Source: Clostridia bacterium (GTDB taxonomy: Bacteria; Bacillota; Clostridia; Christensenellales; UBA1242). Taken from it: a DNA stretch of 64,000 nucleotides. The notes beneath the pieces are model-generated. The model searched no databases, was not told the DNA's origin, and saw nothing but the letters and a program-made list of their open reading frames with translations. Every line of letters starts with the position of its first letter. Position 1 is the stretch's first letter. Shown in pieces: positions 2 to 64,000 of the stretch. Location of the stretch: positions 3,618-67,617 of the forward strand of contig JAEDFU010000006.1 of the NCBI GenBank assembly GCA_016297915.1, in the 5' to 3' direction. Both the position numbers and the translations under genes were made by a program.

Positions 2-577
<576 letters not shown>

Positions 578-1228: not shown

Positions 1229-1237
1229 TCAAAAATT

Positions 1238-1934: not shown

Positions 1935-1964
1935 TTGACTTGTTTTTGAAATTTATTGTATAAT
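1935..1964 (+). promoter_or_regulatory. sigma-A type promoter upstream of secD (TTGACT - 18 nt - TATAAT)
   Basis: TTGACT at 1935-1940 and TATAAT at 1959-1964. Implies a ~180-nt leader before the secD ATG. Confidence 0.55.
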
Positions 1965-2151
1965 CATGTGTAATTAATTGTGTGTTTTTGTAAAAGTTCA
2001 CAACTTAATTGAATGTTTTTGTTTTTGAAAGACAAAGACAAATTAATTGTGTTTGCAGTTTTTGAAAAAATAGACACAAAACAATGTCTTGAATTTGAAA
2101 ACTTGGCAAAAATTAATTATAAAATATTAACTAAATTTTTTGGAGCAATAA

Positions 2152-4444: not shown

Positions 4445-4451
4445 TCATAAA

Positions 4452-4481
4452 AAAAGCCCTTTGTTACCAAAGGGCTTTTTG
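4452..4481 (+). terminator. rho-independent terminator after secF
   Basis: AGCCCTTTG-ttac-CAAAGGGCT stem followed by a T-run. Confidence 0.8.
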
Positions 4482-4510
4482 GTATTTTGCCCAAAGTAAA
4501 AGGTAAAATT

Positions 4511-32902: not shown

Positions 32903-33085
32903 ATTGACCTCAACTAACAAAATATTTTGCGAATACTTTTAGGTATTGTAGCAATAAAAAAAACTTATGTAAAGCAAATATGTGACAAATAAGCATCAAA
33001 ATAATTTATTTAGTTTCATATTTGCATTTTAATTAAATGACAAATAGTCAATAATGTGCTAAAATGTCTGAAATGGAGGGGTTTT

Positions 33086-37978: not shown

Positions 37979-38063
37979 AATCACCTGCTGAAAATAATCT
38001 AATAATAGTATATTGCTCATGCAAATTGATTATAACTAAATGGAATGGAAAAGGAGAAAAATA

Positions 38064-38999: not shown

Positions 39000-39012
39000 A
39001 AGGAGGAAAAGA

Positions 39013-41331: not shown

Positions 41332-44300
41332 TTACATATTTGTTGAACTATGATGTAAGTAATATTCGTAAGGTTTGTTGATAGTTACACTAAATTCAAC
41401 ATCTCTTGTAATTGTATCAAGTGTAAATGAGCCTAGACTATTTACATTGCAATTACTTGTATTTATTGTGCTAATAATATCATATTGAGTGTAATCTGCA
41501 AGTTTGTAATTATCGTTTAGCGTTGGATTATGTGAAACATTTTGGTTAAGTGTCACATAAGTGTTTTGAGTGTTATTTAGATAATACATTGGATAGAAGA
41601 TATATATCTCGTAAGTTCCATATGCGTCGATTGTTGTAGTAACGCCTGCAGTCTCACCAGCTACATCATAAAGTCCATTGTAAATATTCTCAAACTTAAA
41701 CGATTGATTGTTGTGCAAATTAACTGAATATGCATAATCAACAACACCTGAATTATCTTTGTGAACAAGAAGTATTGTCATATAATCGCTATCTTGAACG
41801 CCGTCTGTTCCTGCATCAGCAGTAAGAGTTGCATTGACGGTTACATTGAATACTCTTTCATTAAATGTAATTACAAGTCCATAATTTACGCTATCAATGT
41901 TTTGTGAGATTATAATATCTGCATTGTCATTTGTTGCATATTCGGTGTATCTAGTTTGATCCTCAGTAATTGTTACGCCATCAACTTCAGTACCGGCTTT
42001 GGTTAATTCGCCAAATAATGTAGAAGTAATAAGTCCAGTGCTTGTGTTGGAAACAATGAAATTACCAACCTCATTTGTTATTATCGAATAAGTAAACTTA
42101 AGTTCTGTAGTTGACTCAAAATCTTGAGAATCAACGATATCACCATATAATGATTCAACCTTACCGCTAGCATTTGTAAATAAGATATCATTGTTATCCA
42201 TATTCAAATTACCAAGCTGATTGGTGTCATCACCATACTTGTATGGATTGTATACTATTACATCAATGTCTGTTGTATCGCCACCATAGATTGATCTAAG
42301 TACTGGATAATCCCAGTTGATATGATTAATATAGATCCAAATATCATCAAAGTCCCAAGTACTTTCTTTCTTGAATTTATTTTGACTTCGTAAGTCACTA
42401 CTTGATATTTGAATAATGTTGTTTGTTACATCGCTTGATGCATTGCTTGTTGTATTTACAAGTCCTACGCCAATTTTTGGAGTACTTGTTGTATCTACAA
42501 GATAGTAGTTTTTGGTTACTGAATAATTTGTTGCATCAGAACTAATTGCATTAATAACTCTTGCATTTCCGTTTGTCAAATTAAATTCTGTCGCTACATA
42601 GTTATTAATTACTTGACCATTATTAGATAGCCTTAGAACCAATCCAGCAATACTTTCCAAAGCACCATTATAGCTATTTACTTGACCTTTGACATAGTTA
42701 TTAAGAACACTACCCTCAACAAATAGTGCATAAGCGCTATGTCCGTCACTATAATTGTAACTATTTATAATACCATTGAAATATGATTCTTGAAGTTTTG
42801 TGCCATTATTTACATTTGCAACCATACCGCTTGCATTTACATAACCATTTAGAGCCCAGATGCTTCCGCCTAAATCGCCACCAAACTCATAACTTTCGTG
42901 TAATCTATAAGTTCCGTCATCTTGCAAAGCATATCCAGTAACTGATGAACCAGTAACTATTGTGCTATCTGAAATCTCATGTGCAAGACCAGAAACTATA
43001 GTATTATTAGAATTATTGATATCAAAGTTATTGTATCCGTAGATATTACCACTTATGTAGTTACAATTAGCAATACTTGATGTTCCGCCAATTGTTCCTA
43101 CAATTGTAGCACCGCTAGTTAGCGTCAAGATATCTACATCTACAAAGTCAAGACCTCTAATTATAGAATTAGAAATTTGATTTACAAATGATGATTTGAT
43201 AGAAATCTCATCACTTCCGATTGCAATATTGACATTACTATCAATAGTCATTCCCTTGATAACTACATTGTCAACATCAGCATCTTCAAGAAGATCAGAT
43301 GCGACAATATTATTTGCATCCTTGCCAATACCAATAATATTAAATGAGTTACTATGTACACTATTGATTGGAGTGAAGTATCTTCCGCTCAAGTCAATTG
43401 GTGTGCTACTTGCAATTACAAATGTTTTGCCCTGTATACTTGAGTTATTATAAATTGATGCTCTAGATAGCCATGCAATATCATCTGCACTATCCAAGAT
43501 GTAATAATCATCTGTGCCAATAGTCATCTTGAGTGAGTCAAGAGTAATGCTCTCGATACCGGATTTTTCAATCCATAGACCATTGTCTACAAGAGGATTA
43601 GTACTTGAATAATCATTTACACCAAGAGTTGCAAAACCGCTTGTCTTTTCGAACTTAAACTCTGGATAGTCGGTCGAAGAGTAAGCATTAAGGATGTTTC
43701 CAATATCGTTACAAATAGCATTGGTTGTAGTTGTATTTTCAATTGTTCCTAGACTTACAACATTATATACAAGTACATCCTTGTTAGTTGTATCTATATT
43801 ATAAGAAATACCTTGAATTAACTTATCCTTGCCTGATACAAAGTTTAGACCGTTTTTGATATAGCTTAGGTTTCCTAAATTCTTGGAGTTAATAATTTGT
43901 CCATGATTTTCACCAGCAATTCCGCCAAAGGCAACAATTGATTGGTTATTTGAACAATTATCTAATGTGTAATTTAGAGTTGCGTTATTTTGAGCATTGC
44001 TAATAATACCATTATTGATACCAGCAATTCCGCCAAATACATAGGTGTATTTGTTTGCAGAAGCAATCAAATTATTATTGTTCTCAATCAAATACTTAGA
44101 TATGTTGTCGTCTGAATTGTTGACAACGATATTATTTAGTCTGCCATTGTTTTCGGCAACTAATGCCACAATAGATTTGTTAATTCCAGTTTGATTGCTT
44201 TCTGATGCTACAATATTTAGTCCATTAAATTTTAGTCCAGTGATTATCCCTTGGGTTTCAAGAGTATTAATCAAGCCAAACTTAGTAGTATTTGTAGTAG

Positions 44301-47300
44301 TATCAACATTTGACATACCATAAATATAATCTGCATTTGATACTTCATTTGCATGTCTACTTGTTATACCCAAAGACAAGTGAGAATCTAGTAGAACATT
44401 ATTAAATGCATATCCATTGCCGAATATAACTCCTGCAAATCTATCTAGACTTGGAGTAAATCTGCTCTCAAAGTCTATATCGTTTGTAACTACAAAGTAA
44501 GTTCCAGCAAAGTAATTATTACTACTGCTGTTATTTACTATATAGCCCCAATCGCTTGCTTTGGAAATTCTATATGGATTTGTCTTAGTTCCGCCACCTT
44601 GCAAAGTTGTGGACGAAGGCGCATCATTCCAGTAATGTCTTACAAAGTTTACATGAAGTTCGATATTACCAACTACATTGCCAATATCAATCTTATAACT
44701 ATAAGTCATATCCCCTGTTGGATTACCATTTGACAATACTTGTTCGTCAGTTCTTACATAATTTAGTGTTGTCGCATTATTAATTAGAACGCCACCAGAA
44801 TATTTTTGAACTACAGGCAAGTAATTAGTTGTAATCTCCGCCTTGTTACTTGTCCAACTATGTGTGGTTGGGTTGTAATATATTCTTGCAGTGTCAGTAT
44901 CTTTGTATACATAATACTTAACGCAACACTTATCTAGAATATACTTGGCTGTAGGAGTGATTGTTATAGTTATACTTCTTCCGTGTCTAACTTCGCTTGT
45001 AATATCTGTTCCTTGCAAAATATTAGTGCTAACAGTGCTAGATATGATATCCGGAGCAGATACTACACCATTTGTAGTGTTATACTCCAAATCTGCACCG
45101 CTATCAACTATAGTGTTGACATAGTGCTTGCTTGGAATATAATTAGCAACAATCATACTATCAGAGTAGTAAGCATGAGTAATAATCTCTCTATGGGTTA
45201 TAAGTTCCAAAGTCTCACTACCCACAATTATTTGATTGCTTACAATATCCTCGTTTTTAGTTTGATCATCAAATCCTGTAAATCCAGTGAATGTATATGT
45301 TTCTTTGGTGTAAGTGTTAAAGTTTACATATGCATTGTGGTCTACAAACATCTTAGTTGTAAATGTTGTTCCAATATAGTCAGTATTAGTAAGATTACTA
45401 CCGCTGTTGTATGCCAAATTTGTTCCAGCAAGTGAATATACACCTGCGTCGAGCTCAGCTAACTTCAAAGCGCCGTTTTCGTATACATAGTACTGGGTAT
45501 TATAACTTTGGGTAGATACAGTACCGTTATTATCTTTGTCTCCCAAATTGTTCTGATTAATCTGATATGCAGATTTGGTTTGAGTGTCACCAAGCTCTAA
45601 TACGGCTTTTTGAGTATCAGTAATCTGCTCATAACCATTTATATATGCGATTGGATAATCAGAACCAATGTCAGGGTTGACATTAAACTTAACTTGAACA
45701 AGCCATTGTTTGATAAGAGATACTACATACTCACCGCTTGTCTCAGCTGTTGCTACAAATTGAATGCTTAACTTACCGTCAGCAATTGTGTAAGCAAACT
45801 CATTTTGGACGCCAGTTTCACCAAACATAGTGTATTTAGCTTCGTTATACTTATTGTTAAGTGCAAACTTATTTGTGCTTGTCTCAACACTATTAACAAT
45901 TGTCTTGTTGTTGTCTAGATAATTTAGTCCATTGCCATCGTCCAAAGTCTTGTCTGCTTTGAGCATCCAATAGTCTACTCTAATATTAGCAAACTCTTGA
46001 GCAATAACAGCTGATGCTAGAGATAATTCAATATTAACTACACTTCCATGTGGAATATTTGTAAGTGTTGGATTTGTACTTGAAACTGTAGCATTATTAG
46101 TATTTTCGCTAATCTTAATAGCATCTACAAGTTCGTTTGAATCATTAGATGTATTTATAGTGCTAACAGAGATATCATATGTATCAATATCCTCTCTTAT
46201 CTCTATGTAATAATCAAATCTGTTGCGGTCATATATATTACTTACATTAGATGATGGATTAAGTTCCATTTGAACGCCAAGTTTCTTGCCACTGATGTCT
46301 TGAACATCGCTAATTCTTGTGTAAGTGTTGGTTACATTATCAATAGCGGATGACTTGTGACCAAGTGTTATTGAAGTTACATGTCTATAGATTATAGATG
46401 TAACTCTTAGATTGACTTGCGCGCCTCTATAAATGTATATAGTTCCATTTGAATTGATTACAACATTGGTTATTGTTACAAAGTTATTAGAAATAGTTGT
46501 TGCACCATTTTGTCTAATACTTGTTACGCTATTATCTATATCTACTACATAATTTGGAGATATAAGAACTAGTTTATCCTTGTTTTCATTTGACTCTTTA
46601 TCATAAGTAAAGTACCTATCTGTCAAGTCATTTGAATTTAGTAATGTATAGTCGTCACCGTATGGCAATCTTACGATATAATCGTTAAATTGCTTAAATA
46701 CAGGAAGTCCATTGTTTACATCAGAGTAAATACTCCATACATTTGTATAATCCCATGTGCTTGTTGGGAAGTTGGCTACCTTAACAATTTCGCTTGATGA
46801 TCTTGAAAGTACATCATTAAGAGTACTTGCGCCACCAGATACAACAACATCTGTTGTACTGTAGTTACTTAACCCCATGCTTTTTACACTAGATGATAGC
46901 CATACTGCGTGAGATAATTGTACTTCGCCACTAGAAACATTGTTTGCAAGATTGGCAACGCTAAATGATGCTGTATTTGTTACTTTGACAGAGATGGTCC
47001 CTGCATTGTAAATATTTGATATAGTAGTCTTAGTAGTGCTATTGATTCCTATAACACCAGCAATGCTTTGGTTGCCACTAGAGTCATCAGACATCATTAT
47101 ATTACCTACAAAGTACATATTTGCAAGAGTATTGGTTGTATCTGCACAAGCAATTACACCATATGCTCGCTTGTATCCCAAAATATCTGCAGAGCTACCA
47201 AGATTATTAGTATTGGCAGATGAATTTACTTTGGCTACAACAGCCGATACATAATCTGTACCAACAATGATGCCGTCAGATATAACTGTCTGTAATACTG

Positions 47301-50300
47301 CACTATTTGTACCTACTGCACCGGCAGTAAACTTGGATGTGGAAATAATATCTGCTACAACTGATACATTGCTTATAGTACCCAAATTGTTTGCAACTAG
47401 TGCAGATGTACTATAGTCGCTACTGTCTACTACCGATAGATTTGAATTAACGATATGGAAGTTATCTACAAACAAACTATCAATAGTGCCGTGGTTTTCA
47501 AGAATCAATGCCAAATCATAATAAGTTGTTCCACTTACTACAAATCCCATTGAAGCATATAGATATAGGTTGGAAATCTTGTAATTGTCTCCGTCCAAAT
47601 TTGCCTTAAACGATACAATTGGATTTAGATACAATCCTTTGAGATCAATATCTGCAGTTAACTTATAGTAAACAGTACTTTCGTTGTTTCTGTTGTTATT
47701 CATATTGTTCATAAACAATACAAAGTCGCTAGCACTAGATATCTTGTATGGGTCAAGTTTTGTTCCAGTTCCAGCAAGAGTGCTAGAACTTGTACTCATA
47801 TCAACTATTGCCGATACTTGTTTCAAATATCCCAATATACTCGTATTTGTCGAATTATTCTGCCAAATACGGGAATCAAGACCAAGCTCATCAACATTTA
47901 GTTGACTAACTGTCTTACTAGTTGCGTCATTTACGACTTTGGATGCAACTAAGAAATTAGTCTTGCCATACTTGCTAATGTCGCCAATATTAAACATCAT
48001 ATCACTATCTGCTACACCACTATTTACATGATGTACATTGCTCTTAAGAATTGCATCTTTGGCATTTGCAAATCTTAGAGTTGGATTAGAGATTGTGACA
48101 TTTGTATTTGTCTTATACTGACTTTGTCTATTTACAAAGGCATATGAATTATAGATTTCACCAAAGTAATCAGACAAGCCTATCATTGCACTCACACCAT
48201 TGTGATTTGCAACAAAGTTTACATTAATTACCTCAGTTTGATTAATTACAAACATATAATCTGCTACACCAATTACACCACCAAGAGCAACCTTGTCGCC
48301 CATATGTGTTGTTTTGATACTATAGAGAGTTGAGTTTGTAATATGTAGGTTGTCAATATAAATATTCTTTGCATTACCTACGACTGCACCAACTGCGTAA
48401 GCCAAGTCAGTTGAAATATCCATTGCGTCAAAGTTTAGTCCAATTAATCTTGCATTACTCGAGTTTGCAATAAATCCTACATAGTTACTAATAGAATTAG
48501 TTTGCTCGCTAAATGAACCAGTAAGATTTTTAGACATAAGCTCAATTGTAATTCCATTGATGCTACCAGTGTTTGTAACTTCGTTTCCGCTAAACATCAC
48601 ACCATCAAACTGACTAATTGGAAGCCAGAATTTGTGGGACATGTCTAAGTTATTTGAGATACGATAGTAAGCATCTTTGAAATAATGTGTAGCTGAACCC
48701 ACTTGATATGATGCATTAGTATCATTATTAAGTAAGTGAGCAAGCCAACCAAGTTTGTAAGGATTGTCTATTACAAATGCAGTATTTTTGGTTAAACCGT
48801 CAGTGCCAGATGTATTTTCAAACTGGAACATTGCCTTGATTGCATCCAAGGTTTGTCCGCTTGTAATAGTTGGAGTTGTATTATTAAACTTAGTCGAGTC
48901 GGTTGTGTTTCCACTAAGTTTACCACTGTAGTAATTAGGAATATTTGTATCAATACCTAATTGATCAAAGTAAGAATAGTAGTCTTTTTTGTACTCAATG
49001 TCAATTGAGACTTTTTCGTCAATAACTGTAATCTTACCATAATCATAAGTATAAGTTTTGGTCATACGATATGTAGTACTATTTAGGCTTAATTTGTATG
49101 ACAAATAGCCCTTTTCTCTCTCACCCAAACTTTCTGACTCAGTACTACTTTCGTCTAAGTATGAGGTGTATTTTGGACTAGGAATATCGTTTCCGTTAGA
49201 ATCCTTTTGGGTATCTTTGTTTGTCCTATTTGCGATAATACTATCATTTTCGTCGGTTAAACGATAATTTTCTTTGGTTGTAGAAACAATCTGAGCAGTA
49301 TGTCCGTCTGGCATTTGTGATGAGATAATTACATTGTCACCACTGAGCATGATAGAAACATTAAGTGCTCTACCCATAGCAATAACAGATTGTGTTACTG
49401 CATTAGCTGTGATTTCGCTATAAGTATTGCTTGTACCAAATGCGTACTTGAGTGTACCATTATCGTTTTTGATAGATATAATCTGACCAGAGATTGTATC
49501 TCTTCGGATAGACAAATGAGTCTCTTCCATGTTTTCGGCATTATGTATATTATATGTAAAGTCATATAGTTTGTCTATCATATAGAAGGCATACTCACCA
49601 ACTGTGCTAAGTGGATCACTTGGACTTGTTGAGTCATAGTTCAAATCAAATATAATGTTTGTGACATATGTATTGTTTTGAACAAACAAACTAGAGTTGT
49701 TTACACCAAATATACCTCTTGACAATTGAACTGTGTCATCGTTAAAGTAATGTTTTTGACCATTTTCAATATAGTAGATAGCACTTATTGCTTGATTCTC
49801 TATCTCGTAATAATATGTTTGGAGTGTGCCAGTTGCAGTATTGTAGAATCTTCGAGCAAATTTTCCGATAAGTGTACCGGATTTTTCGCCCTTAATCTCA
49901 ATTGTCATTTGCGAGCCAGCGCTAACAATATTACCAGGAGTTATATCATAAGTTCCATTATCATCAGTGTAAGTAAGTACAGCGTTATACTTAATTGGAT
50001 AAGTTGTACCATTGATTGTTACTGTTTTTGCAGTCAAGTTTGCAGGATAACTTGTATTGTTGTAAGTAACTGCTCCGTCTACTACTGGATATGTTGAAAT
50101 TCCAATTTCAATATATCCATATTCGCAAACATTTCCACCACTTACACATGTTGTACTGTCATAATCAAATGGATGATTTGTATCATAATTGCATATCAAG
50201 TTTCCGTTTGAATCATAACAACTGCTTATATGTTCGTGATAATGTAGCCCAGTAGCAACAGCCGAAGTATAGATGTATTCAACTACTGGATAGTAATAAC

Positions 50301-53300
50301 CCTCTATCGCTTTGTCAGATACAACTGTCAATGTTGCCTTGGTTATAAATGGAGTTGATATAATTCCATTATTCATTGTAATAGTTGATGTAGTAATTGA
50401 TGTTGACTCAATTAGTGAACTATTACTATTTAGAATATCACCTATCAAATCAATTCCTGAATTTGTACTATTGTACTTGATGTAAGAAGTAGATTTGAGC
50501 GACTCAAATGTAGATGATGTATCGCTATTTGGTCTAAATACCCAACCAAGTAACCTTGTAGCAACATAAGAATTTGCACTTCCAACATAAGGAGTTGCCT
50601 CAAATGTGAATGAAATCTTGCTATTTGGGGTAGAAGCGTTGGTATTTGTGTAGTAATATTCTTTGGTAGATTTAGTCAAGTACCAAGTATCTTGAGTATC
50701 ACTATTATTATTGTATCTTTGGGAGTTGCCAGACAAGATATTTGTCTTGTTTGTGCCATTTACATCAACAATTGTACCTGTTGCTGTAACTGTTCCCATA
50801 GCGTTGCTACGACCACTTTCTCCAGATACTCCGTTGATACCTGTTCCAAAGTAATTGAAGTTTTTGGACAAAATAACTCTTATTACATGTTCGTTTGTAC
50901 GAGCATATGTAATATCACTCTCAGCAAAACCATTAGTAGTCGAAATGTAAGACAACACATCAATATCCTTTGAAGTAGTTGCATTATCATTAGTTCGATA
51001 ATTGTATTGGTATCTTCTAGACTTGCCATCAACCGAAATTTCTACTATGTGGAAGTTAGTAAGAGGAGCTATGGTTATTTGATATTTGTTGGAAGTATTC
51101 GTCGTAAAGTCGTGCAATGTCTTGATGTAATAGTCCATGGAATTTGAAGTATGTTTACTTTCGTTTTTTGTTCCATAGATTATTTGGTCAAAGCCTTGAT
51201 TGTTTGTAAGAGTAAATGTATTTGCTACATCTTCGCTTGTAACAAAGTCAATACCCTCAACCACAATTTGAACCTTGACATTGTGTGAATTTTTGTTTCC
51301 AATTAACATTGGATATGGATAATCTGTATCCGCATTATTTATTGTTTGATAATACCAAACATTTTCAAAATCAAATCCGCTTGGCTTAGAACCAGTTTCT
51401 TTGAGATTGTCACTAGAAATAACTTCTGCATTGGCTAGAGGCAAATTACATGTGCCACTTAGCATATATGCATTAGTTTTTGTTACCGTTCCACTGCTTA
51501 GACCATTGGTCGAAGTAATTCGGAATGTCGCACTTGAGTAGAAGTTATTAACAGTAAGATTAGCACCACTGCCAGATAATGCATAAGCTTTGGACGATGA
51601 ACTTGTAGATTTTTCAAATTCATTGATACCAGCGCTATAATTGATTCCAGCATTGTTTCCACCAAAGTAAGCATCGTTTACAACTGTTGTTGTGTGCTTA
51701 CCAATAATTCCACCAAAGTATGAAGAATTATTGATGTAATTTGTATTGCCATAAGTATTGATTGTAGCCGATGAATGAACTTTGTTTAGACTTGTACCAT
51801 TTTGCAATCCAACTATACCACCAACGAATTTTGGTGATTGAGTATTTTTGCCAAATGCACCAACATTTATGTCGCCTACAAATTCAAGTTCGTATACATC
51901 CCTATTATTAGTACCAATCAATCCACCAACATAAACTTCATTCAAATCTGAGTCGTTGATGTTGATATCAATTGTTCCATTTACACTACAAGAATAAATG
52001 TCACCATTATTGATACTAGCAATAACGCCATAACTACTTGGTCTGTAAGTTGCAGTTGCACCTACTAACATATAAACATTTGCAAGATTTAAGTTTTTGA
52101 CAACCCCAGAATTTTCGCCAAACAATGAATTTGAGCGGTTTGCTCCAGAGCTATTAAAACTAGAATCATATTCGTGCAATGTGATATTAGAAATTGTATA
52201 ACCTGCACCATTGAATGTATATCCGCTTGGCAAGTTAACAGTCTTCCAAACATCACCACCAAAGTTGATATTAGATGTAAGTCTAAGTTCTACATACTGA
52301 TTGCTTGCATCAATTTTGTTTAGGCTTGCGACAAGCTCTTCCTTAGACGAAATTGCAACAATTACTGGAATTTCCTCAGTGCCACCAGTGTGGTCAGCAA
52401 CAGATACACTACCCGAGATATAAGGTGTAGTACTTGCAAGTCTTAGTGTTCTGTTGTTTGAATTTGGATTAACCCAACGATTTCCAAAACTGCTAATTCC
52501 TGCAGTGCTCTCCATAACTGAGCGGTTGTTAGAACTGCTAAAGAACTCATTTACATATACATTTTTGTAGATAAACTCGCCATTACCAATTTCGTTGCTA
52601 ATTGGATGACTATTTGAAGATGTGTTAGAGCCACTGATATACATGTAAATATCTTCGATATAAACACTAGCAGATGAATTTGAGCTTATCAATGCAGCAG
52701 AATAACCAGTCATTACAGAAGATAATCCGCCATCATCAAAATTAATATTGGATAGATATTGTGATGTTGCACTACCTGAACTTGTTACAATTGGTTTGCC
52801 TAAATCTGTACAATTGCTATGACCGATTAAGTACGAAGCATAGATGTTTGATGCACCATTTACATATATGTCTCCATTAATCAAAGCATTTTTGATAACA
52901 TTATATCCAGTTGTTTGACCAATTGCTCTAGCAAAGTAGTAGTTTACAGATCTTGATGTTGATGATTCAACATTATAAGAGATATACCCCAAATCAATAT
53001 CTAGCAAAGTAGTATTATTGGCAATACCAATTATTCCACCATGATATTGATTAGCCGAGTTGAAATAATTGTAATCTAATCCGTCGAATTTGACACCCTC
53101 AATTGTTGCACCATTACTTGTACCAATAAATGACATTGAAAGATCTCGATTGAAGTTGAAAGTCTCACCAGTTAGGTCTGATGCATAGGTATAAGGATCT
53201 TTTTCGCTTCCGTCAGTATAAATATTTTTAAACGAAGGAGTATTTGTGCTAGCTGTCAATGGAATACTGCTATTTAGCATAATATTCTTTTGACCAGCTG

Positions 53301-56300
53301 TTTTAATACCACTAATTGAGTATTTTTCGGAAATAATCTTGCCTTGGAAGTTATCAAATGGAATCCAAACATAAGAATTCAAATCAATATCAGAATCAAT
53401 ATAGATAACTGTATCAGCACTCTGAGCAATACTTGGAGTATTTGCAATATAAGCAAGTTGTTCTGCCTTGGTTACATGATATCCAGTCTTAGATACACCA
53501 TTGCGAGTAACTGTCGAAGGAGTAATTACCTCGGTATGTTGTCTCCAAGTCTCTGTTGTAAATACAAGAGTAATCTCTGTATTGTATTGCATGTAATTTA
53601 GATTTGTTTCTTCCCAGTTTTTGATTGAGAATACAAATATATTATCGTTATTTGAGGATTTAAAGTATAAATCATCTTCGGCAGATGCGGAGTTTACACC
53701 TTTTTTGGAGAAATACATCGAGTCTGCATTAGTGTACTTAGCACTAGCAGATGTAAATGTTGTATTATATCCACTGGTTGCCTTAATTACTATATAATTA
53801 GCAGATTGAGCAAGTAGTCCTGCTGTATCTCTTGTTATCTCGTTGGTGTCATTAGAATAAATTGTATCACCAAGAGTATAATTATTTGCCGCAGCTTCGG
53901 CAGTTTGTGCTTTGGAATATCCGATTTGGAAACTACCATTACCAAGAATTTTGACGATATCCTTGTTGGTTGTATTCAATTCGTAATCGGCAATAATCTC
54001 ATAAGTAGTGCCATTATGATCTGATGGAATAGTCATTGCGTATTCGAACAAACCATTTTGAGCTGTAAGACTTGTAGAGCCTGGCAAGTAGTCAGTAGCA
54101 CCTACTAACTTAAAGCCCTTGAACTGATAAGCACTCCTGCTTCGGATATCCTCAGCATGCAACTTAACTGTCTTGTAATCAGCACTTGTTGATTGAACTG
54201 TAGCAGTAATATTATTTGACTTAGTTGTTGCATTAGTTACATAGATTTTGTTACCTTGATAAGTTGTATTAACAACACCCTTGAAGTTATCTGATGTATT
54301 GACACCAACTGGGTCGATAGTGTCTTGCTCAATCTCAATGGTTGGTTGAGTAGACGCGTCCAAATAACCTGGACTAACTGTGAGCTTAACATTTCGTTTT
54401 TCCATGAAATATAGCGTCTCTCTCCAAAGATCTTTGGCTGTAGATATTGTTTTGGCAAAAGTTACTATATTACCCCCTGCAACTGTATAGTTATCTGGAT
54501 TGGTTGCACTACCATTGATGTATCCCAAAGAGTTAGAAGTTGCATCTACATTCAAATTTGTAAATGTTGTGATATTGTTGTATAGGTTGTCATATTGATC
54601 GTCATCCCAAGTAATCTTGATTGATGTGGTCTCACCAGCAAGTACATGGACATTGCGATAATAATAATCACCCTTAGCATCAATACTTGATGTATCTAGT
54701 GCATATTCGGTATCATCAACTACAAGTTTGATTGTTGCAGCATGGCCTGTACTAGCATTAGATAAGTAAGTACGGAATTCAATAGTATACTCTCTTACAA
54801 ACGAAGGAGTAATTGTTGCATCCTGGGTTACTGCAATCTTGGTTTGAAACTCTGTAGCGTTGCTAGTATCAGTAGAAACAAGTGTGTTGTTCTTATAATA
54901 AGATTCACGCGAATCTTTGTTGATTAACGAGCCATCGTAAACACCCTTAGAATAATTTTCGTAATTTACACCTTTTACAGTAAAGTGCGTTGTAACCAAT
55001 TCTGCTTTGCTTCCAGATGTGAATGTCACCTCGTGAGGAATATATCTCTCACTACTTTCTAGAGAATAATCTGGTGAATTAATAGAATAGATATATGGTG
55101 TAAGTGTAGTTGTAAACTTAAGACCAGTTGCACTATCAGTGCCATACACACCAAGAACATATGTTGGGCCTGTTGAATTATTATCTAACTCATAGGTGGC
55201 GGAAATATTTGATCCCCTGCCAATAGTATCTGTAGTTATGGATGTAAATGCATTGTATAGTCTAGAGAATTCAGTGTTGTTTACTGTTCCTGTAGAGGAA
55301 TTTACCCAACTGCTATAGCCAGCCTCATTGTAGTAAGGGATATTATTTGTATTTAGTTGATTGCTTGTAAATACAGTAGTAGCTGTTCCCTTGCCTGATG
55401 TTGGCTTGTTGAGAGTTATAAGCAAAATTGGATTGTATAGAAGTGTTACAGTTTCTGCAACTCTAATATTAGAAAATTCAAATGTAAGTACATCACCACT
55501 CTTGGATGTAGTGATTGGACTATTGCCACTCTTTCTTATTAGATTTTCGAATACATAGCCACGCTTGTAACTGTTTACATCATTTGCTGTATTAAATTTA
55601 GGTTCAATAACAGTATCAAATGTCTCAGAAACAGTTGTGCCATATCCAACAATCATTGTCTTACTATAAGTAAAACCACTTGAGTTCAAAGTATAACCTG
55701 CTTTGGTTGCAAATCTTGCTTGGAATGTCTCACCATTCAGCTCAAATGCTTGGTTATCGGCAGATTGAACATTGATAGTAATGGATATTGTATATGTAAA
55801 GTATGCAGATACCTTGATATCTTTGTTCTTTTGAACACCAACCGTCCCGTAATTACTATCAGTGTTAATTGCTGGATGCTCAATTGACTTGTTTGTAAGA
55901 GCGATGTTACCTGAGTTACATCCAGTTCCATTAGCAAGCTTATTTGCATCATAGCCATTATTCAATCCATTGTGGCTATAACCGTATATAGTATTGACAA
56001 TGTTTGTATTGCCAGCAAGTGGATAATAAGTGTTTTCGCCGTCTACTTTGTGAGTCTTGAACTTGTATGGACTGCTAACCTTGACAGATGTTACAAATGA
56101 AACAGAACCAAAGTAACCAATAAATCTGTCTGCGTCAGCAATTTCGGTGTAATTTTTGTTTGTATATTTGTTTGAACGATTATCTGTAGTAACAAGGGTC
56201 ATAAGGTCTTGTCCCTCAGTTAATCCAGTTAATGGGAATTCACTAGGAGTATACAATTCACCATTTTCTTTGCAGATACCATAGTAGAAACTATATGGTG

Positions 56301-59300
56301 TCTTTTTCTCAATAACTTTGGCTTGAATGCAATATGTCAAGTCAGTTGTATGATTTTCAAGGATGACAAACTTGTAATCAGCGTGCCAGTAAGTATTGCC
56401 AGATTCATCGGTAGTTTGATTGTAACCAAGTGACGAAACTGTTTCGTTAGCAGTAAATCCATTAAAGCACTCTGTACTAGTTATAGTTGAATATGGCTCA
56501 AAACCATTCTCAAGTCTTAGTTGCATCTTGACAGTATCATACATATCAACATAATTGCCAGTCAAGTCAGCCTGAGCTGTGCCAGAGTGATTTTGGCGTC
56601 CAGTAATGCCATTGTAAATTGACTTACTTGAGTCAGCATTGCTAAGAGTTAACCAGCCACCAGTATGACTTGCGTCATTATCATATCCAGCTTGAGATAT
56701 ATAGTTCTTTTCGGTAGCTTTGCTACTAAGCTTTAGCATTTGTACCAAATCAACATAGTATATTCCTGCTGTATCACTATTTACATTAAATGTATAAGTA
56801 ACATTTTGGAATGTATTGAGTGTAACGCCTGAAATAGTACTCTCGGTTTCATTCATCCAACGAGCCATTCGTACAATTCGGAATGGAGCGGATGCAATGG
56901 ATTGACTCTCACCATACTTAACCCCACCAAATGGCACATATGCATTGAGTGTGACTCTAGTGCCACTTACAAATTGAGTGGTATAGTACGAGTAAGAGAA
57001 TTTGCCGTTCTCGCTCTGCTTTGTCTTGTTTAGATGTACAAATGTTGGATTTGCCACATCTGCATTATACAAAGATAGGAAAACTTGAGAGTTGAAATCG
57101 TTGATACTTGTGTACAAGTTCTGAGCGGATGTACGAAGTCTATATACAATCTCTACAGCATATAGTTGATTTAATTTTATCTTAGCTGCAATATGATTTT
57201 GATTGTTAGAATCTAGATTTTGAGCAAAGTTATAATCAAATAATATGCCAGTAGTTGTAGTATAAACTTTGTTAGAAGCAGTTGTCACAAGTTTGTTACC
57301 AAATGTGCAAGTTCCTATATTATGTGTTTTGTGAGGATATATACCCTCTAGAGAGTATTCGGTTATAGTGCTTGCACTTCCATCGTACTTGAGATAAATT
57401 GTTGGGCTATCAATAAAGTTGGAGTTTTCTGCTGAACCACAACCAACATATAGATATCCATCAGTTCTAATTGGAATAACTTTGGTACATTCAGCATCAC
57501 TATACAAACTCACTTTGCCATAACAGCCGTTTGTACCTAGTGTAAATGTAACCTCACTAGTAGATTTTACTAGTCCTGATTGGTCAAGAGTAGATACAGT
57601 AAGTAGACTAGACTCTGTTCCGTCTAATTTGGCTAAGTTCAATACAACTGGTTTGGCTGTTGAGAAGAACGCAGTATAGTAAACATCATCATTGTTGCTA
57701 GAGGTTATTTTGGTTTCTATTTCAAAAACTGTTTCAGCTGTAGCATAATTCACCTGAGGAGTATCGTAATAAGCATTATCATAAGCAGCTTGAGGAGTAA
57801 AGAGTGAGTAATAAGTAGAATATTTGGACCTTAGATACCAATCACCATTAGTATTATAAGGCGAGTGTACTAGGCCATTTTCTGAATTGTAACTAGCGCT
57901 TGAATAACGATTATTGCCTTTAAGTTGTCCAAATGCATAGAATTTGTCCATACCATATGGTGCATTTGCATTAGCAGTTGCAGTTTGATCAAATGCAATA
58001 AGGTTAATTGTCCCACCCTCTTTGACAAAGATTGCCACAAAATTCAAATAGTTTTCGGAATCAGAAAATCCTGCAGAGGCTTGATTATTATTTCCTGAAG
58101 ATATATTGATGCTTCCTGCTGTTCGTCTGCCCTCTTGGTTGGAACCCGGACTTGTAATATTTACTCTATCCAAGTAAACCAAGTGATAATAATCAAAATT
58201 GACACTAAGGTTAAAGTTTGGACTTGTAGTAACATTGCTTAAGTCATTAGCAGAGATAACAAATTGAGCCTGAGAGCCAACATTTGGACGAACTTGGTTG
58301 TTATTTGTAGTAATCCATGGTGTTCCAGAAATCATACAGTTGTCATATGCTCCATTACTAAATGGTCCAACTGTTTCACTGCCAGAGCGTAAAGTGGCAC
58401 CAGCCATTCTAGCTTCGGATATGGCATAATATATGGAGTTTGTTTCAAATGTAATTGTATGTTCGTTGCCTGCAATGGCTTGGATTTCATATTCATATGT
58501 GCCATACGAATACTTGCCAGCAATATTTGCATAAATCTTTCCTACTAATGTAGAACCTTTTCTAATTTCATATGTCTCATATCCCTTTAGTTTGAGTGCC
58601 TCTAGGGTGATTCTTGAAATTGTAAGAGTTTCGGTACTAGCTGAGTAACCATCATGACGATTAACAAAACTTGATAGTGAAATTGTAAATAGTTTTGCGA
58701 ACCTATGTCTAAAGTTAACTGAATAATTGCTATCAATATAGCTTACATTTGCCTTGATATTAAACTCAACCCATTCGCTGTATGGTTTGTCAAAATTATC
58801 TGATCCGGTTGTAACTGCTCCGGTAGTAATATTTTGATAGCTAAACTGAGATATTGTAGATATTCCTGTAGAATTAGTCTCAGTTGCATTGAGTTTTTCG
58901 ACAATAATCCAGTTATTTGCAGATAATTCATCATAGTTATCTGTATCAGCCTTGATATATAGTTTAGTAAAGAATCCACAATCAAGTGTTGTATATGCTG
59001 TATCGTCTAATCCAGCAAACATAGATCCGCCATTGTAATCACTCGATGGAGTGTTAGTGGTAATCTTGGTTGCACTTTTGGTTGTACGATATCCAAGTGT
59101 TCCGTTAATGTATGATGCATAACTATTAGCATTACTTACACTTCGATAATTTAATGTAGCAGATTTTGCCCCAGTTGTACCTGATATAGATGTGGTTGAT
59201 GAATCATAAGCAAGTGTTGTGCTTAGGTTCAAAAGTCCAGTGTAGCAGTCTGTGCAAAGCGTATCACCACAACCATGACCAAATGTGTGAGTAAACACTT

Positions 59301-62300
59301 TTTCTTTGAGTGTAATTCTTATTGTAAATAGTTTGTTCTCATTAGCACCAGTCTTAATGAATTTATTATCTGTAAAATTGCTATCAGGAGAAGTGAAAAA
59401 CTGAGTATATTGAGTTGCAAGACTCTCTCCATCCAAAATCTCAAACTGAACAAACTGCCAACCGTATAGATTGTTGTCGGCATTCAATGCACCAGTTACA
59501 AACTTAAATCCAAATTTGTGTGCATTTTCTATTGCAGTTGTGGAGTTGCTTGTATTTGCTGATGAAAAGTATCTATACTTAGGATAAGTATTTTCGTCCG
59601 GAGTATTTATATTCGAAGATGAACGAGTTGTCTCTGTGATGTTAGAAACTACTCTTTGAACTTGGTCAGCTGTGAAATCTGCGTTATTGGATATAGCGTT
59701 GACAATTACTCTATAGGTATCTTCAAACGCATAATATTTTTGAGATGTAGCAGTTGCATCGCTAGAACTAGACGATATAATTGCACTAAGACTTGTGTAG
59801 TCACTAGAATTTAGCTTGGCTACATAACTGCCACTCTCGGTTACTAGTCTTACGCCTACACCATTATCGCTAAGGATTCCGGTGCCGGTGATAGCCGGAA
59901 GATTTGTTCCTTTGAGAATGTATGCGTCAGCTGTGCTGTTTAGAGTACTCGATGCACTTATTTGAATATGAATATTGTATTTAGCCTTGAAGTCACTTAG
60001 ATTTTCCACAACGCCAGAGCTAGCGGAACTTCTCTCAAAGAACAATCCCAAGTATTTGGCGGTGTCTGGGGTTGAAATCGTTTGAGACTTAGCATATGTA
60101 GTATTAGCGCCCGAAAGCACATTCATATTCTTGTCATAAGCCTTGACCAAAACTGAGTAATTGGTCATATTGCTTATAATTCTGTAAGTAAGTCCGCCCA
60201 CAATTGGTAGATAATCGTCCAAAGTAGGCGCAATTAGTTTTGTAGATGTAGCCTTGTATGTCAAGAACGAATTATTTGCAGTACTTATATAATTTAGATG
60301 ATAATCCGCAACAAATGTGTAAGTAACTGTGCTTTTGTCGATGTTTTCTACAAAATCATCAGTAATTGTATACCAAGTTGTGCCGTCTTGAGATACATAC
60401 AAGCCCTTGATATAAGCCGAACTTGTATTGTTTACAACAATCTTAACAATGTCCTTAAGCTCACCTAGGTCCACTGTTTTGCTATGTGTGCTTGTTCCAT
60501 TGCTTATAACTGCGCCGTCGGCTGTATAAACGCTAAATGCAGGAACAGTTGGAGCAACGACTCTAATATATCGAGCATTAAGAGTATTTGTAGCCCACTT
60601 AACAGGATTGTTTGTATTCGTCTTGACTACTGCTGTTTTGACAGTTTCGGTCATAATTGGTTCTATTTCCATATATGATGTAGAGCCAAAGAAATTGCTC
60701 TTGCCGTCTACTGCCTTGAAATTAAACTCAATAGTATTTTTGTCAGCACTAAGATTTGCTGTAAATATTTGCTCAAGAGCCTCCGCTGTAAATGTGTAAG
60801 CCTTAGGAACAACCCTAGTTGAAATTCCGTCGCTATAAATTTCGTATACAGTGTAGTTTGCCGAATCTTTTGTTATTGTATTAAAGTCCGAAGTCTTATA
60901 TACATACAACTTATAATACTTAACCTCGTATCCAGTAGCAGGACTAACTGTGCTAGTAATTTTGTCATATGCAGATGTTTTGTCTAGCGTATGACTGCTA
61001 AATCCATGGTTGCTAGGCAAAGCAAGTCCCCTAGATACAAGTTGAGCATTGGAAGATGCAGTTGCAAGTTTGACATAACTTACAAACTCACCCTCTATCA
61101 CAAACGAACTGCCTGTATAAGTTCCCTTGTAATTAATATTGCTTGCATTATAGAATGCTACATTACCAGCAACATATTCTGTATTGGATACCCCATTAAT
61201 CTTGGCAAGCTGTCTTACAAAGTTTGTATCTGGCGTGAATTGTGCCTCAAGGATTGAGTAGTAGTAAACTTTGAGAGCAGTACTAGTCGAAGTATAAACA
61301 GTATTGTTTGTACCCCTGGTATTGAGAGTAAGATTAGAACTGTTACTTGTATTTGAGCCGTATTTATCACCAATAGTAATCTGTCCTCTGCCTGTAATTT
61401 TGACAGATGAACTATTAGTAGAACCCGTTCCAAAAGTTTGGATTTCCTCAAATTGTGGTTCAATTTTAGACTGAACCTTGATGCTATTTGTATTCAAATA
61501 CTGAGCTTTGTTGAGGGTTACTTCAAATGTTATTGTATTTCCACTTATAGTTGGTTTTACTGGAGGAATAGTAGCAAGTGTTGTGCCACTATCTGTATAA
61601 GTTGTAGTACCAATCTTGACACCATTGTACTTGTAACCAGCACGCATAGTGATAGTTACTGTAACCACTAGGTTTTTGTTGGTATCAGTATCAGCCAAAT
61701 CATATGTCCAGGAATAACCAGAGTGATTTTGAGGAGCTTTGGTTGAAGTATCACCGTCAAGCAAGGCATTTATAGATATATTCTCAATTGGATTTAGTGT
61801 AGTTAATTTGAGAGCATTTGCTTGAGCAGAATATGCCGTAGTATTTCCCTCAAAATTAAGTGTGATGTATGGAGCATAAGTAAATTGCATTGTAGAAATT
61901 GCATTGCTTGACTTGTGTCCATATTTAGATAGAGGCTGAGCTGTGCCAATAACTGGTCTATTGTTGAATGTAATATCTTTGGCATCAAGTGATGTGTCGC
62001 CGGTTGCTTCAATGCTTATAAGGATATTATCATAAGCGGCGTCGTCTAGGTTATCACCTCTTGTAACTTCGATATAGTTGCCATATACGGTCTCTATAAT
62101 GTATGTAACTTTGTTTGCAGAGCCTGCATATCCCCCATCTGTGGTTTGGTCAGAACCTTTGAGAGTGATACTGGCTATTTTTATCGAACTACCCGATGGA
62201 TAGATCTTCTTGCCGACTAGTCCTGATGATTGACTTGAATATTGTTGAGCTAGTTTTATGTCAGTACCTGTATCGCCTTGCATTACAGTACCTGTATTGT

Positions 62301-64000: not shown

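Follow-up and report, generated by a model that had tools for sequence, protein, structure and literature searches.

A ~10,000-residue, largely non-repetitive candidate surface protein of uncultured gut Clostridia contains divergent GLUG/IgA1-protease-type beta-helix modules

Introduction

Giant adhesins are normally built as repeat arrays, and adhesins typically vary at their exposed tip. Beta-helix modules of the GLUG/IgA1-protease type are common in the surface proteins of Firmicutes and Bacteroidetes. The beta-helix N-terminal domain of the S. pneumoniae IgA1 protease is represented by PDB entry 7uvl (PMC7695701). The Apilactobacillus kunkeei proteins Giant1-5 are extracellular, comprise 3,000-8,000 aa, and possess a signal peptide, an N-terminal beta-solenoid and C-terminal wall-binding SH3b-like domains; they are composed of imperfect-repeat arrays of 13-51 copies, are mostly alpha-helical, and end in DUF5776/SH3b-like domains (PMC12863079). 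From gut Clostridia, West-Roberts et al. (10.1101/2023.11.21.568195) described giant proteins that include 10,000-30,000-aa proteins with Listeria-Bacteroides repeat, YG, dockerin, LRR and FN3 domains as well as RCC1-repeat giants of Oscillospiraceae.

The locus reported here is located in a 64,000-nucleotide stretch of DNA, referred to as the window, from an uncultured gut Clostridia bacterium. The giant protein that it encodes resembles A. kunkeei Giant1-5 in that it comes from a host-associated member of the Firmicutes, is Asn-rich and thousands of residues long, has a putative N-terminal Sec signal and no sortase motif, and is predicted to combine beta-solenoid with beta-sheet domains, adhesion being the inferred function in both cases. 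By contrast to these proteins, it lacks repeat arrays and DUF5776 and is almost all-beta where modelled. With the giants of West-Roberts et al. it shares an origin in mammalian-gut Clostridia, a length of ~10,000 aa or more and presumed surface binding. Those proteins contain recognisable repeated Pfam domains, whereas a Pfam scan of a full 8,985-aa ortholog at E up to 0.05 identified no domain at all. Compared with repeat-built giant adhesins in general (Ebh, Bap/LapA/SiiE-type proteins and A. kunkeei Giant1-5), the bulk of the window protein is not a tandem array, and neither Pfam scans nor the gene neighbourhood revealed RTX/T1SS, DUF5776/SH3b or accessory Sec features.

Results

The 3' part of the giant gene occupies positions 41332..64000 on the minus strand of the window. 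Re-translation agreed with the first-pass annotation of this region: minus-strand frame 1, read from 64000 to 41332, encodes 7,555 residues with the terminal TAA at 41332-41334 as its sole stop, and is open at the window edge. The translated part (window product) begins NVTGYHFFL, the L of which is a TTG at 63975. The remaining five frames across 41332-64000 contain 350-874 stops. It had been stated that these frames break into pieces of 150 codons or fewer, which is correct for start-to-stop ORFs (longest 150 aa) but not for open stretches, the longest of which spans 165 codons from stop to stop. At a composition-expected stop-codon frequency of 0.073, the probability of encountering no stop in 7,555 codons is ~1e-248, and the earlier argument that the frame is too long for chance thus stands. 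A composition count also agreed with the description of the product as dominated by T, S, N, Y, G, I and V, low in charge and poor in Cys, Met, Trp and His. We obtained 11.6% T, 10.8% S, 10.4% N, 7.5% I, 7.2% G, 6.8% Y and 6.6% V, with D+E+K+R at 15.5% and C, W, M and H at 0.38, 0.56, 1.06 and 1.26%, respectively. GC and GC3 are 35.3% and 26.4% in the giant gene and 33.7% and 29.1% in the rest of the window's genes; because codon usage and GC content are this close, we regard the giant gene as native.

Full lengths in the species of the window were taken from called gene lengths, reached via the neighbouring permease, the identical sequence of which is present on 23 public contigs. On the two same-species contigs that are long enough, the giant gene is called as a single product, of 9,981 aa in Logan ERR15003729_3808 and of 10,077 aa in CAYDAI010000002.1 of assembly GCA_964320725.1. 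The full gene comprises ~10,000 codons (~30 kb), and, judged from these calls, the window is short of ~2,450 codons at the N-terminal end, which places the true start beyond its edge as had been proposed. No locus was retrieved from genome contigs with the first 1,000 aa of the window product as query, and in metagenome contigs neither the N-terminal 500 aa nor a C-terminal profile gave a match. Extension upstream thus yielded the full lengths, from same-species contigs, and a signal/anchor helix, from orthologs, but did not reach the N-terminus in the species of the window itself.

At six loci of the same species, identity to the window is 99.0-99.995%, and the last 3,258 codons are free of internal stops. 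A check of conservation and length in relatives, as called for by the earlier annotation, showed that at least four further lineages of uncultured Clostridia carry colinear orthologs of 8,802 to ~9,970 aa, with the chromosomal surroundings shared. Two of these, full-length and 8,985 and 8,802 aa long, are found on MAG contigs of 495 kb and 836 kb, with an AGGAGA ribosome-binding site and an ATG start. The ortholog of ~9,970 aa is broken only by a 10-N scaffold gap, and the SIG395 ortholog comprises at least 3,741 aa. The L012 copy is intact, as are orthologs A and B. Apparent splits of the gene in L001 and L013 proved to be 10-N scaffold gaps and not real breaks; only the single in-frame TGA in the homolog of the P0001 species, seen in three independent assemblies, is real. 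Many metagenome copies of the giant gene are fragments. There is one copy per genome. Together with that of the window (W), the lineages are A, B, SIG395 and XIEF21 scaffold_562. Their sample sources include Hadza and other human-gut samples, and the species of the window occurs in sample SRR12268559.

Between species, dN/dS is 0.28 overall; along the protein it drops from an N-terminal value of 0.56 to a C-terminal value of 0.06, and identity between orthologs climbs in the same direction from 38% to 75%. Within species, pN/pS is 0.15-0.24. These data mark the giant gene as a real, intact and conserved single gene subject to purifying selection, which supports the first-pass reading of one very large coding gene over an assembly artefact. 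It is also core, syntenic and vertically inherited, and located outside any variable island; the gene neighbourhood agrees with its earlier placement among core genes. Downstream, an ABC-2 type permease and an ATPase are encoded convergently with the giant gene, and this downstream synteny is common to all orthologs listed here. A T1SS adaptor is absent beside the ABC-2 system, and the position downstream of the giant gene is taken by the permease instead of a toxin/immunity pair. No sortase was found among the 30 genes of the window or the five genes upstream of an ortholog, and no SecA2/SecY2 or glycosyltransferases are encoded near the giant gene, among the window genes or upstream of the ortholog. 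YunB is encoded upstream of an ortholog, and relatives carry sporulation genes. The window contains no tRNA or Rfam elements, and no terminator-like site was found 3' of the giant gene.

The orthologs start with MRKSVNSELKVKH, followed by a ~23-residue hydrophobic helix that is the sole hydrophobic segment in 8,800-9,000 aa; the full-length orthologs have no second transmembrane segment. A putative signal-peptidase site, GIFS|A, was read by eye after this helix, and the N-terminal part is Cys-rich in orthologs. By analogy to the orthologs, the giant protein is likely to be exported by Sec via the N-terminal signal/anchor helix. The protein ends in ...PYEYYLHHSSTNM, with neither an LPXTG-like motif near the C-terminus nor a C-terminal hydrophobic segment. 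SLH, CWB2, LysM or other wall-anchoring signals were not detected in Pfam scans of the window product and the full ortholog, combined with inspection for transmembrane segments and motifs.

Profile searches showed that a module of 300-400 aa is present in six divergent copies, 16-29% identical, which make up ~28% of the window product; orthologs contain seven such modules. The shared module head, GGTxxxPYxIxxAxD...Y.kLtxDIDLxxxxWxPIxxFxGxFdGnGYxIsNl, is followed by G-rich coil repeats. All six copies are encoded on the minus strand. Module 1, a divergent GLUG/IgA1-protease-type module (52501..53520; aa 3494-3833), and module 3 (47908..48816; aa 5062-5364) were recognised by family-internal iterative HMMs and matched a broader profile at E=2e-11 and E=4e-12, respectively, in each case with the copy outside the training set. 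Module 2 (51256..52407; aa 3865-4248) has the head motif and a shared tail element (aa 4146-4248); it matched the broader profile at E=2e-64 with the copy in the training set, and one copy of this module weakly scores Pfam Glug. Head and tail element (aa 5693-5773) are also present in module 4 (46681..47790; aa 5404-5773), which was detected by self-BLAST and HMM profiles. Module 5 (43642..44616; aa 6462-6786) was found with HMM profiles, and within the C-terminal 1,200 aa no part other than its head has matches outside the family. Module 6 (42283..43566; aa 6812-7239) has a head and tail by HMM, the tail sequence WDFddIWiy..NWDYPVLRsIYG being conserved; its counterpart in orthologs A and B matches the broad profile at E ~1e-5.

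When a C-terminal tile was compared with 1.84e9 proteins using phmmer, ~30 were matched via the module head, with E down to 7e-11. The matched proteins are GLUG/Peptidase_M26_N/InlB-B-repeat surface proteins. Eight of them were scanned, and Pfam Glug was present in four and Peptidase_M26_N in one, each directly beside the matched stretch. An HMM from the modules of the giant family alone matched those outside proteins repeatedly, at E=1e-9 to 1e-23. A bridging profile of three window modules and 12 outside modules matched 3n6z_A in the PDB (E=1.1e-23, profile positions 4-245), a link that is transitive because outside sequences dominate this profile. A profile of the family's own modules had no significant match in the PDB, a lacto-N-biosidase beta-helix being marginal at E=0.94. 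Scanned singly, three of 12 family module copies matched Glug (best E=1.8e-4). Neither Glug nor Peptidase_M26_N was found when the entire window product was scanned in tiles against Pfam with E allowed up to 1, and the gathering scores of these two models were reached by neither the window product nor the ortholog. Weak tile matches to other Pfam models (F5_F8_type_C_2, DUF5640, Ig_Irg-7 and others; E=0.003-0.35) are far under the cut-offs and were dismissed as noise. At the level of profile comparison, these results show homology of the modules to the GLUG/IgA1-protease-type beta-helix superfamily, and this fraction of the product does resemble known proteins. The first-pass annotation had seen no recognisable enzymatic domain, and here it was borne out. 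Pfam, NCBIfam and PDB searches found no enzyme signature, HExxH is absent from the window product and from every ortholog, and neither Peptidase_M26_C nor any other protease family was detected with Pfam/NCBIfam.

Structure prediction in tiles, suggested earlier, succeeded for one of two regions. For the last 1,200 aa (aa 6356-7555), AlphaFold gave a nearly all-beta model with a pLDDT of 72; the model of aa 5156-6355, from a four-sequence alignment, had a pLDDT of 36.8 and was discarded. The last 1,200 aa are predicted to form two beta-solenoids (model residues 110-400 and 457-830), followed by beta-sandwiches. In module 5, which corresponds to model residues 110-400, a short cap helix precedes strands of 3-5 residues. 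Module 6 appears solenoid-like across model residues 457-830, with pLDDT mostly 75-94. The C-terminal beta-sandwich region (41335..42276, minus strand; aa 7242-7555) is modelled as long-strand beta structure at pLDDT ~80-90 and is the most conserved part of the protein, sharing 60-75% of its residues with orthologs A/B. Across six fragment clusters, identity is ~40-61% over the last 455 aa, a stretch that overlaps the tail of module 6. No sequence-level relative of the C-terminal region was found in the PDB by profile search.

Foldseek searches with the whole 1,200-aa model returned Gram-positive pilins and adhesins at the top (E=2e-6 to 1e-3). Among the pilin-like matches, those of the Spy0128 type were best (E=2e-6), with TM-scores of 0.25-0.30 and an rmsd of ~18 A; a CnaA/CnaB-type Ig-like fold with intramolecular isopeptide bonds is a tentative possibility. 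We infer that these matches belong to the C-terminal beta-sandwich region, the Foldseek output being without aligned query residues. The IgA1 protease 7uvl_P was matched with a probability of 1.0 and an rmsd of 8.6 A over 335 columns. K2-2 tailspike, PL6 alginate lyase and pectate lyase were matched at the fold level only (probability 0.1-0.5), and matches in BFVD were 'right handed beta helix' proteins. With moderate confidence, the modules may be assigned a right-handed beta-helix fold from the model. The surface-protein folds in the modelled part and the single N-terminal signal/anchor helix of the orthologs lend indirect support to the surface location that had been proposed.

No relative outside the family was detectable for ~72% of the window product, including all of aa 1-3490. 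A comparison of the W+A+B profile (aa 1000-2199) with 5.8e9 proteins gave no match, a weak result in that mid-gene fragments seem absent from the database, and profile-to-PDB searches with four orphan tiles (A4, A5, A7 and A8) returned noise only. The product had been described as not being an array of near-identical tandem repeats, and both TRF, with only four trivial two-copy DNA matches of 12-20 nt, and protein self-BLAST, with only nine weak HSPs, agree. Profiles add the six very divergent module copies to this picture: iterative HMMs from every 140-160-aa tile, with four and then seven family sequences, indicated that only these modules repeat, and nothing is repeated in aa 1-3490. Autocorrelation of hydrophobicity gave no clear signal of a beta-helix coil period. 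Two His/Cys clusters are encoded on the minus strand. The cluster LHYHxHxxSCYdsnGnLiC...H...C (50125..50244; aa 4586-4625) is conserved in five lineages and is possibly a metal or disulfide site. The other, HTxGHGCxxxxCxxC (59245..59289; aa 1571-1585), is conserved in the window protein and in orthologs A and B.

Discussion

We consider it probable that the giant protein is a Sec-exported surface fibre or adhesin, one that adds a family to the giant adhesin-like fibres already known without being a new type of system. A single N-terminal signal/anchor helix would direct the protein into the general Sec pathway for export, and the protein would form a very long, mostly beta fibre, of an estimated ~0.2-0.4 micrometres, on the cell surface of this uncultured gut member of the Clostridia, a Gram-positive spore former. 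This fibre would be a chain of mostly unique beta-rich segments, broken by at least six divergent beta-helix modules and devoid of a tandem array, and would end in the strongly conserved, weakly pilin-like beta-sandwich region. Acting as an adhesin or spacer, such a fibre would most likely serve in attachment to mucus of the host, to particles from the diet or to other cells. Were the N-terminal helix to stay in the membrane, the functional tip would be formed by the conserved C-terminal region. The fibre architecture is extrapolated from a model of the last 16% of the window product; a fibre shape of the remaining 70%, adhesion and the orientation are conjectural, as is any interaction with a host.

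The beta-helix modules share the head, the coil repeats, and the cap helix plus solenoid with the GLUG/Peptidase_M26_N beta-helix (PF07581, PF05342; 3n6z, 'putative IgA1 protease'; the S. pneumoniae IgA1 protease N-terminal domain 7uvl). They differ from GLUG/M26_N proteins in being sub-threshold in Pfam and in accounting for only ~28% of the protein. By contrast to the M26 IgA1 metalloproteases (ZmpA/B/C), the giant protein lacks the M26 protease domain and the HExxH zinc site. Sortase-anchored pilins and MSCRAMMs (Spy0128/T-antigens, PitB, Cpa, SdrD; 3b2m, 6n0a, 4s3l, 2xic), which are all-beta, Ig-like, extracellular and adhesive, provide the best folds for the C-terminal model. However, the giant protein has no LPXTG, C-terminal transmembrane segment, nearby sortase or sequence similarity to them, and the TM-scores are only 0.25-0.30. 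In size it also exceeds a pilin subunit 30-fold, and it does not arise by polymerisation of subunits.

Concerning orientation, the opposite arrangement fits at least as well, because the N-terminal part evolves fastest and the C-terminus slowest. The signal peptide would be cleaved, the C-terminal beta-sandwich would bind a conserved cell-wall polymer non-covalently, and the fast-evolving N-terminal part would be the exposed tip. The gradients in dN/dS and in identity between orthologs, the putative signal-peptidase site after the helix and the layout of A. kunkeei Giant1-5 (PMC12863079) are all consistent with it. Yet at ~23 residues the hydrophobic stretch is long, as would rather be expected of an anchor, neither Pfam nor the PDB yielded a match of the C-terminal region to a known wall-binding family, and the best folds of the model are pilins and adhesins and not SH3b, LysM or CWB2. 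As a complete account of the protein, we regard this reading as one of rather low probability.

A surface multi-enzyme or scaffold, in which beta-helix modules or orphan segments degrade glycan or protein and thereby feed on host mucin or dietary polymers, appears improbable. GLUG/M26-N modules usually occur beside catalytic domains, as in the distant match P0022 (GH20 + M26_N + GLUG), and the beta-helix of the IgA1 protease gates a protease (PMC7695701). Matched folds include PL6 alginate lyase, pectate lyase and phage depolymerase tailspikes, the marginal profile match is to the beta-helix of a lacto-N-biosidase, and the conserved His/Cys clusters could be metal sites. Against this, neither the window protein nor the full ortholog contains a catalytic family in Pfam/NCBIfam, HExxH is missing, the four orphan tiles were empty in profile-to-PDB searches, and the lyase and tailspike matches are confined to the fold level at low probability. 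A further, tentative suggestion, to which we attach a rather low probability, is that the ~70% of the protein lacking detectable homologs beyond this narrow clade (aa 1-3490 plus ~2,450 residues outside the window) is more than divergent Ig-like or beta-helix filler and contains undescribed folds or activities, for example, metal-dependent sites at the His/Cys clusters. If true, the protein would be among the largest essentially non-repetitive bacterial proteins known and would have a function beyond passive adhesion, encoded by a core gene that an entire clade of uncultured gut Clostridia retains at a cost of ~30 kb.

It is very unlikely that the protein is a structural component of the envelope or spore with no specific ligand, such as a surface coat, an exosporium-like nap or a cell-cell spacer. 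The sporulation genes of the relatives, YunB upstream of an ortholog, the core, syntenic and vertically inherited nature of the gene and a T/S/N/G/Y-rich, low-charge composition like that of structural surface layers would fit such a role. However, there is a single copy per genome with one transmembrane helix and no known S-layer or exosporium domain, size and beta-helix/Ig-like modularity are adhesin-like, and the promoter, being outside the window, offers no evidence of a sporulation type. Finally, an assembly artefact, pseudogene, non-functional ORF or polymorphic-toxin/CDI-type effector is largely refuted and hardly credible: despite the in-frame TGA of the P0001 species and the fragmentary metagenome copies, the gene is intact in six independent same-species assemblies, in orthologs A and B and in L012 (the break in L013 being a scaffold gap), is colinear in at least four other lineages, has native codon usage and is under purifying selection along its whole length, and a toxin is contradicted by a C-terminus that is the most conserved and not the most variable part, by the lack of a toxin/immunity pair downstream, and by the absence of Rhs, RHS, YD, LXG or filamentous-haemagglutinin Pfam matches.

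In conclusion, we report here a giant gene that has escaped annotation, since it has no Pfam/NCBIfam domain or name, is represented in databases mostly by fragments and is split by gene callers at scaffold gaps. As a probable surface fibre or adhesin, its product opens no new class of mechanism. An almost non-repetitive giant is a useful test case for the evolution and folding of long unique sequences. A gene of 30 kb demands much of a cell, but at least five related lineages of uncultured gut Clostridia have preserved it intact, with purifying selection acting on it. Because such a costly gene is retained under selection, the giant protein is probably central to the gut lifestyle of these bacteria, in attachment, aggregation or particle binding, and it illustrates the unseen surface biology of uncultured gut Firmicutes.

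Results

The giant minus-strand gene at 41332-64000 is open from position 64000 to its single stop, a TAA at 41332-41334. The chance of meeting no stop in these 7,555 codons, computed from the base composition of the region, is ~1e-248, so the view in the first-pass annotation that the frame is not fortuitous holds. The remaining five frames are broken up, as it had stated, with 350-874 stops each, and their open stretches reach 165 codons, exceeding the limit of 150 that it gave. The amino acid composition was also described correctly: of the residues of the window product (the 7,555-residue translation, along which we number residues), 61% are T, S, N, I, G, Y or V, 15.5% are D, E, K or R, and 3.3% are C, W, M or H. 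GC and GC3 are in line with those of neighbouring genes. No DNA tandem repeats were found in the giant-gene region and self-BLAST of the window product barely detected internal similarity, in agreement with the claim that this is not an array of near-identical repeats.

An identical copy of the neighbouring ABC-2 permease gene (39013-41106) is present on 23 public contigs. Six same-species loci are 99.995% (one) or 99.0-99.5% (five) identical to the window over ~17-22 kb. In all six, the final 3,258 codons of the giant gene are free of stops, with pN/pS values of 0.15-0.24 relative to the window. A single product of 9,981 aa is called from a Logan contig of 74 kb (L016), and one of 10,077 aa from a contig of 660 kb in the NCBI MAG GCA_964320725.1 (L018); full-length calls occur only where the contig is long enough, and the remaining same-species copies end at contig edges. 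The window thus covers some three-quarters of the ~10,000-codon gene, the true start lying outside it, as predicted. The two calls are 96 residues apart in strains ~99% identical in the 3' third, reflecting either a length polymorphism in the 5' part or a different choice of start codon. Frame continuity and selection led us to reject the possibilities of an artefact or a pseudogene.

Colinear orthologs of 8,802 to ~9,970 aa were found in related genomes, where the first-pass annotation had suggested looking for conservation and length variation. Two are in the Clostridia MAG contigs CAKVHV010000001.1 (Hadza) and DOEE01000003.1 (UBA11490), each 66% identical to the window product across the C-terminal 1,500 aa. 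Upstream extension of these loci yielded complete ORFs of 8,985 aa (A) and 8,802 aa (B), both opening with ATG behind an AGGAGA ribosome-binding site; ortholog residue 1488 aligns with window residue 5. Identity to the window product is ~38% in the N-terminal part and reaches 65-75% at the C terminus, and dN/dS between A and B, 0.28 overall, declines steadily from 0.56 to 0.06 in the same direction. Three further colinear members are more distant. The ~9,970-aa version, on an ENA scaffold, is split into calls of 7,529 and 2,435 aa solely by a 10-N gap in the scaffold. The gene of Clostridiales SIG395 runs for at least 3,741 codons and is still open where the locus ends, and the homolog in the related P0001 species is 46% identical. 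In P0001, one in-frame TGA (TTLKTN*NGSIGSKYNPF) lies just ahead of the fourth beta-helix module described below, at nt 3416 of L001, 678 of L002 and 680 of L003, corresponding to residue ~5400 of the window product (window ~47.8 kb). Three assemblies, made independently from separate samples, all show it, and gene callers therefore give products of 234 and 2,251 aa. It represents a nonsense allele that has become fixed, or a split gene, or else a case of read-through; TGA serves as a normal stop in four of 30 window genes.

Downstream in the window follow genes for an ABC-2 permease, an ABC ATPase, a VTT-domain protein, PadR, a YgjP-like protein, a nucleotidyltransferase, a tyrosine recombinase and LexA. 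This full order recurs in the distant lineage scaffold_562 and in same-species loci, the members with the longest downstream sequence. As far as checked, permease/ATPase/VTT synteny agrees by Pfam calls in P0001 contigs, and ORF sizes and strands agree in A, B and SIG395. Upstream of the ortholog are YunB, class-V aminotransferase, ThiI, RNase Y and RNase H genes. Elsewhere, the window consists of core chromosomal genes (RecJ, RelA/SpoT, HemZ, PNPase, FtsK, RimO, PBP1A, MiaB, MutS, MutL and MiaA), consistent with the location beside core genes noted earlier. The giant locus is a vertically inherited core locus of an uncultured, low-GC, apparently spore-forming clade of gut Clostridia.

The ABC ATPase and 697-aa ABC-2-type permease (ABC2_membrane, DUF2705) genes (38040-41106, plus strand) are convergent with the giant gene. 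This tail-to-tail arrangement is shared by the window species and two other lineages; A, B and SIG395 have size- and strand-matched ORFs at this position. The pair is not a type I secretion system. At 35238-37085 (plus strand), a 615-aa protein has a PadR domain confined to its first ~100 residues and a long unannotated C-terminal extension that keeps its position in related loci. The stretch at ~31.1-34.3 kb, with LexA (31168-31794), the tyrosine recombinase (31862-32920) and the nucleotidyltransferase-like gene (33056-33952), is strain-variable within the species. Here L019 has a Microviridae-type prophage (1-5178; Phage_F capsid, Chlamy_scaf, REP_ORF2-G2P), L016 and L017 have two additional DUF2726 genes (~3.4-5.3 kb), and in the window a CD-NTase_C/anti-phage-nucleotidyltransferase-like gene adjoins the XerS-like recombinase. 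The stretch has the look of a hotspot for integration or of a small defence islet.

The full-length orthologs start MRKSVNSELKVKH, followed by a hydrophobic helix of ~23 residues, the sole hydrophobic segment of the entire protein; neither an LPXTG motif nor a C-terminal anchor was found in them. A (L010 ~7500-7700) and B (L011 ~7710-7900) are identical in ~60 nt of 5' leader and in the initial 43 residues, which the B-like fragment P0057 (aa 1-43) shares, whereas over the following ~500 aa A and B are only 33-61% identical. This indicates that the export signal and leader are under strong constraint, or that recombination was recent. Conserved His/Cys clusters stand out in the otherwise Cys-poor protein: HTxGHGCxxxxCxxC at 59245-59289 (aa 1571-1585) and LHYHxHxxSCY...C...H...C at 50125-50244 (aa 4586-4625), with CxxC...CxxC pairs near the ortholog N terminus (A aa 54-73, 315-335). 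These may be metal-binding sites or disulfide knots.

Pfam and NCBIfam gave no match above threshold in the window product, Pfam had no hit to the complete 8,985-aa ortholog even with E up to 0.05, and phmmer found nothing among all PDB sequences. Iterative profile searches seeded from every tile of the protein identified a sole recurring element, a 300-400-aa module with six copies in the window part (heads at aa 3494, 3865, 5062, 5404, 6462 and 6812) that are mutually 16-29% identical; aa 1-3490 contained no repeats. Modules 2, 4 and 6 have in common a tail element ending WDF..W.....YPVL. With the last 1,200 aa as query, an exhaustive phmmer search of 1.84 billion representative proteins returned only 55 matches, ~25 of them ortholog fragments (41-67% identity) and nearly all others confined to the ~80-aa module head. 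Several of the eight outside proteins scanned have Pfam GLUG, Peptidase_M26_N or InlB B-repeat domains, and one has GH20; further weak matches are Bacteroidetes T9SS proteins. The module is found several times per outside protein.

A profile of the family's own modules had no PDB match; a bridging profile of three window and 12 outside modules matches PDB 3n6z, annotated 'putative immunoglobulin A1 protease', over nearly its whole length (E=1.1e-23). The broader profile also picks up the two window modules outside its training set, at E=2e-11 and E=4e-12, as well as a seventh one in the N-terminal part of the orthologs. The equivalent part of Streptococcus pneumoniae IgA1 protease forms a small right-handed beta-helix gating substrate access (PMC7695701). 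The window product has this type of module but is not the enzyme, because it lacks an HExxH motif and a protease domain; the earlier impression of no recognizable enzymatic domain was accurate. Beta-helix modules account for ~28% of the window product, to which extent it is not the undescribed protein first proposed; the remaining ~72% had no homolog outside the family in sequence and profile searches.

An AlphaFold2 model of aa 6356-7555, from an alignment of 24 family fragments, is almost all beta (mean pLDDT 72; 730 residues at or above 70). Two runs of 3-5-residue strands, each after a short helix, correspond to modules 5 and 6, and the last ~310 residues are modelled as long-strand beta-sandwiches. 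The top Foldseek matches in the PDB are Gram-positive pilins and adhesins (Spy0128/T-antigens, PitB, SdrD, Cpa and Mobiluncus adhesin; E=2e-6 to 3e-3, but TM 0.25-0.30), followed by IgA1 protease 7uvl (prob 1.0), phage tailspikes, PL6 lyase and pectate lyase. Matches in a viral structure library are right-handed beta-helix proteins.

Discussion

The most economical reading, drawing in part on the model, would be a giant surface fibre exported via Sec, with a likely role in attachment. The single N-terminal signal/anchor helix seen in orthologs would be followed by a largely unique, beta-rich chain of ~10,000 residues, with interspersed beta-helix modules, that ends in the highly conserved beta-sandwich region. 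If extended like known beta-solenoid or Ig-like rods (~0.48 nm per ~22-residue coil; ~4 nm per 100-residue domain), the fibre would measure roughly 0.2-0.4 micrometres.

The conservation gradient is compatible with either of two orientations. The N-terminal helix could anchor the protein with the conserved C terminus as the tip or, by analogy, the signal could be cleaved, the conserved C terminus holding the wall and the fast-evolving N-terminal part forming the tip; the latter resembles the layout of the A. kunkeei giants (PMC12863079). The orphan 70% may have an enzymatic role, although nothing supports it. A polymorphic toxin was rejected given the conserved C terminus.

Three groups of proteins come closest to the surface fibre that we favour. 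Likeness to GLUG/IgA1-protease-type beta-helix surface proteins is at the module level only. Gram-positive pilins and MSCRAMMs weakly resemble the model in fold, but their defining sorting signal is absent here. Giant extracellular proteins of A. kunkeei (PMC12863079) and gut Clostridia (bioRxiv 10.1101/2023.11.21.568195) are repeat arrays of recognizable domains; the window protein is not so built.

In conclusion, the gene is real, large, conserved and uncharacterized, yet there is no pointer to a new mechanism. The family that it defines is new and lacks annotation, and falls within a known kind, the giant bacterial surface fibres or adhesins. It is unusual for that kind in being almost non-repetitive.
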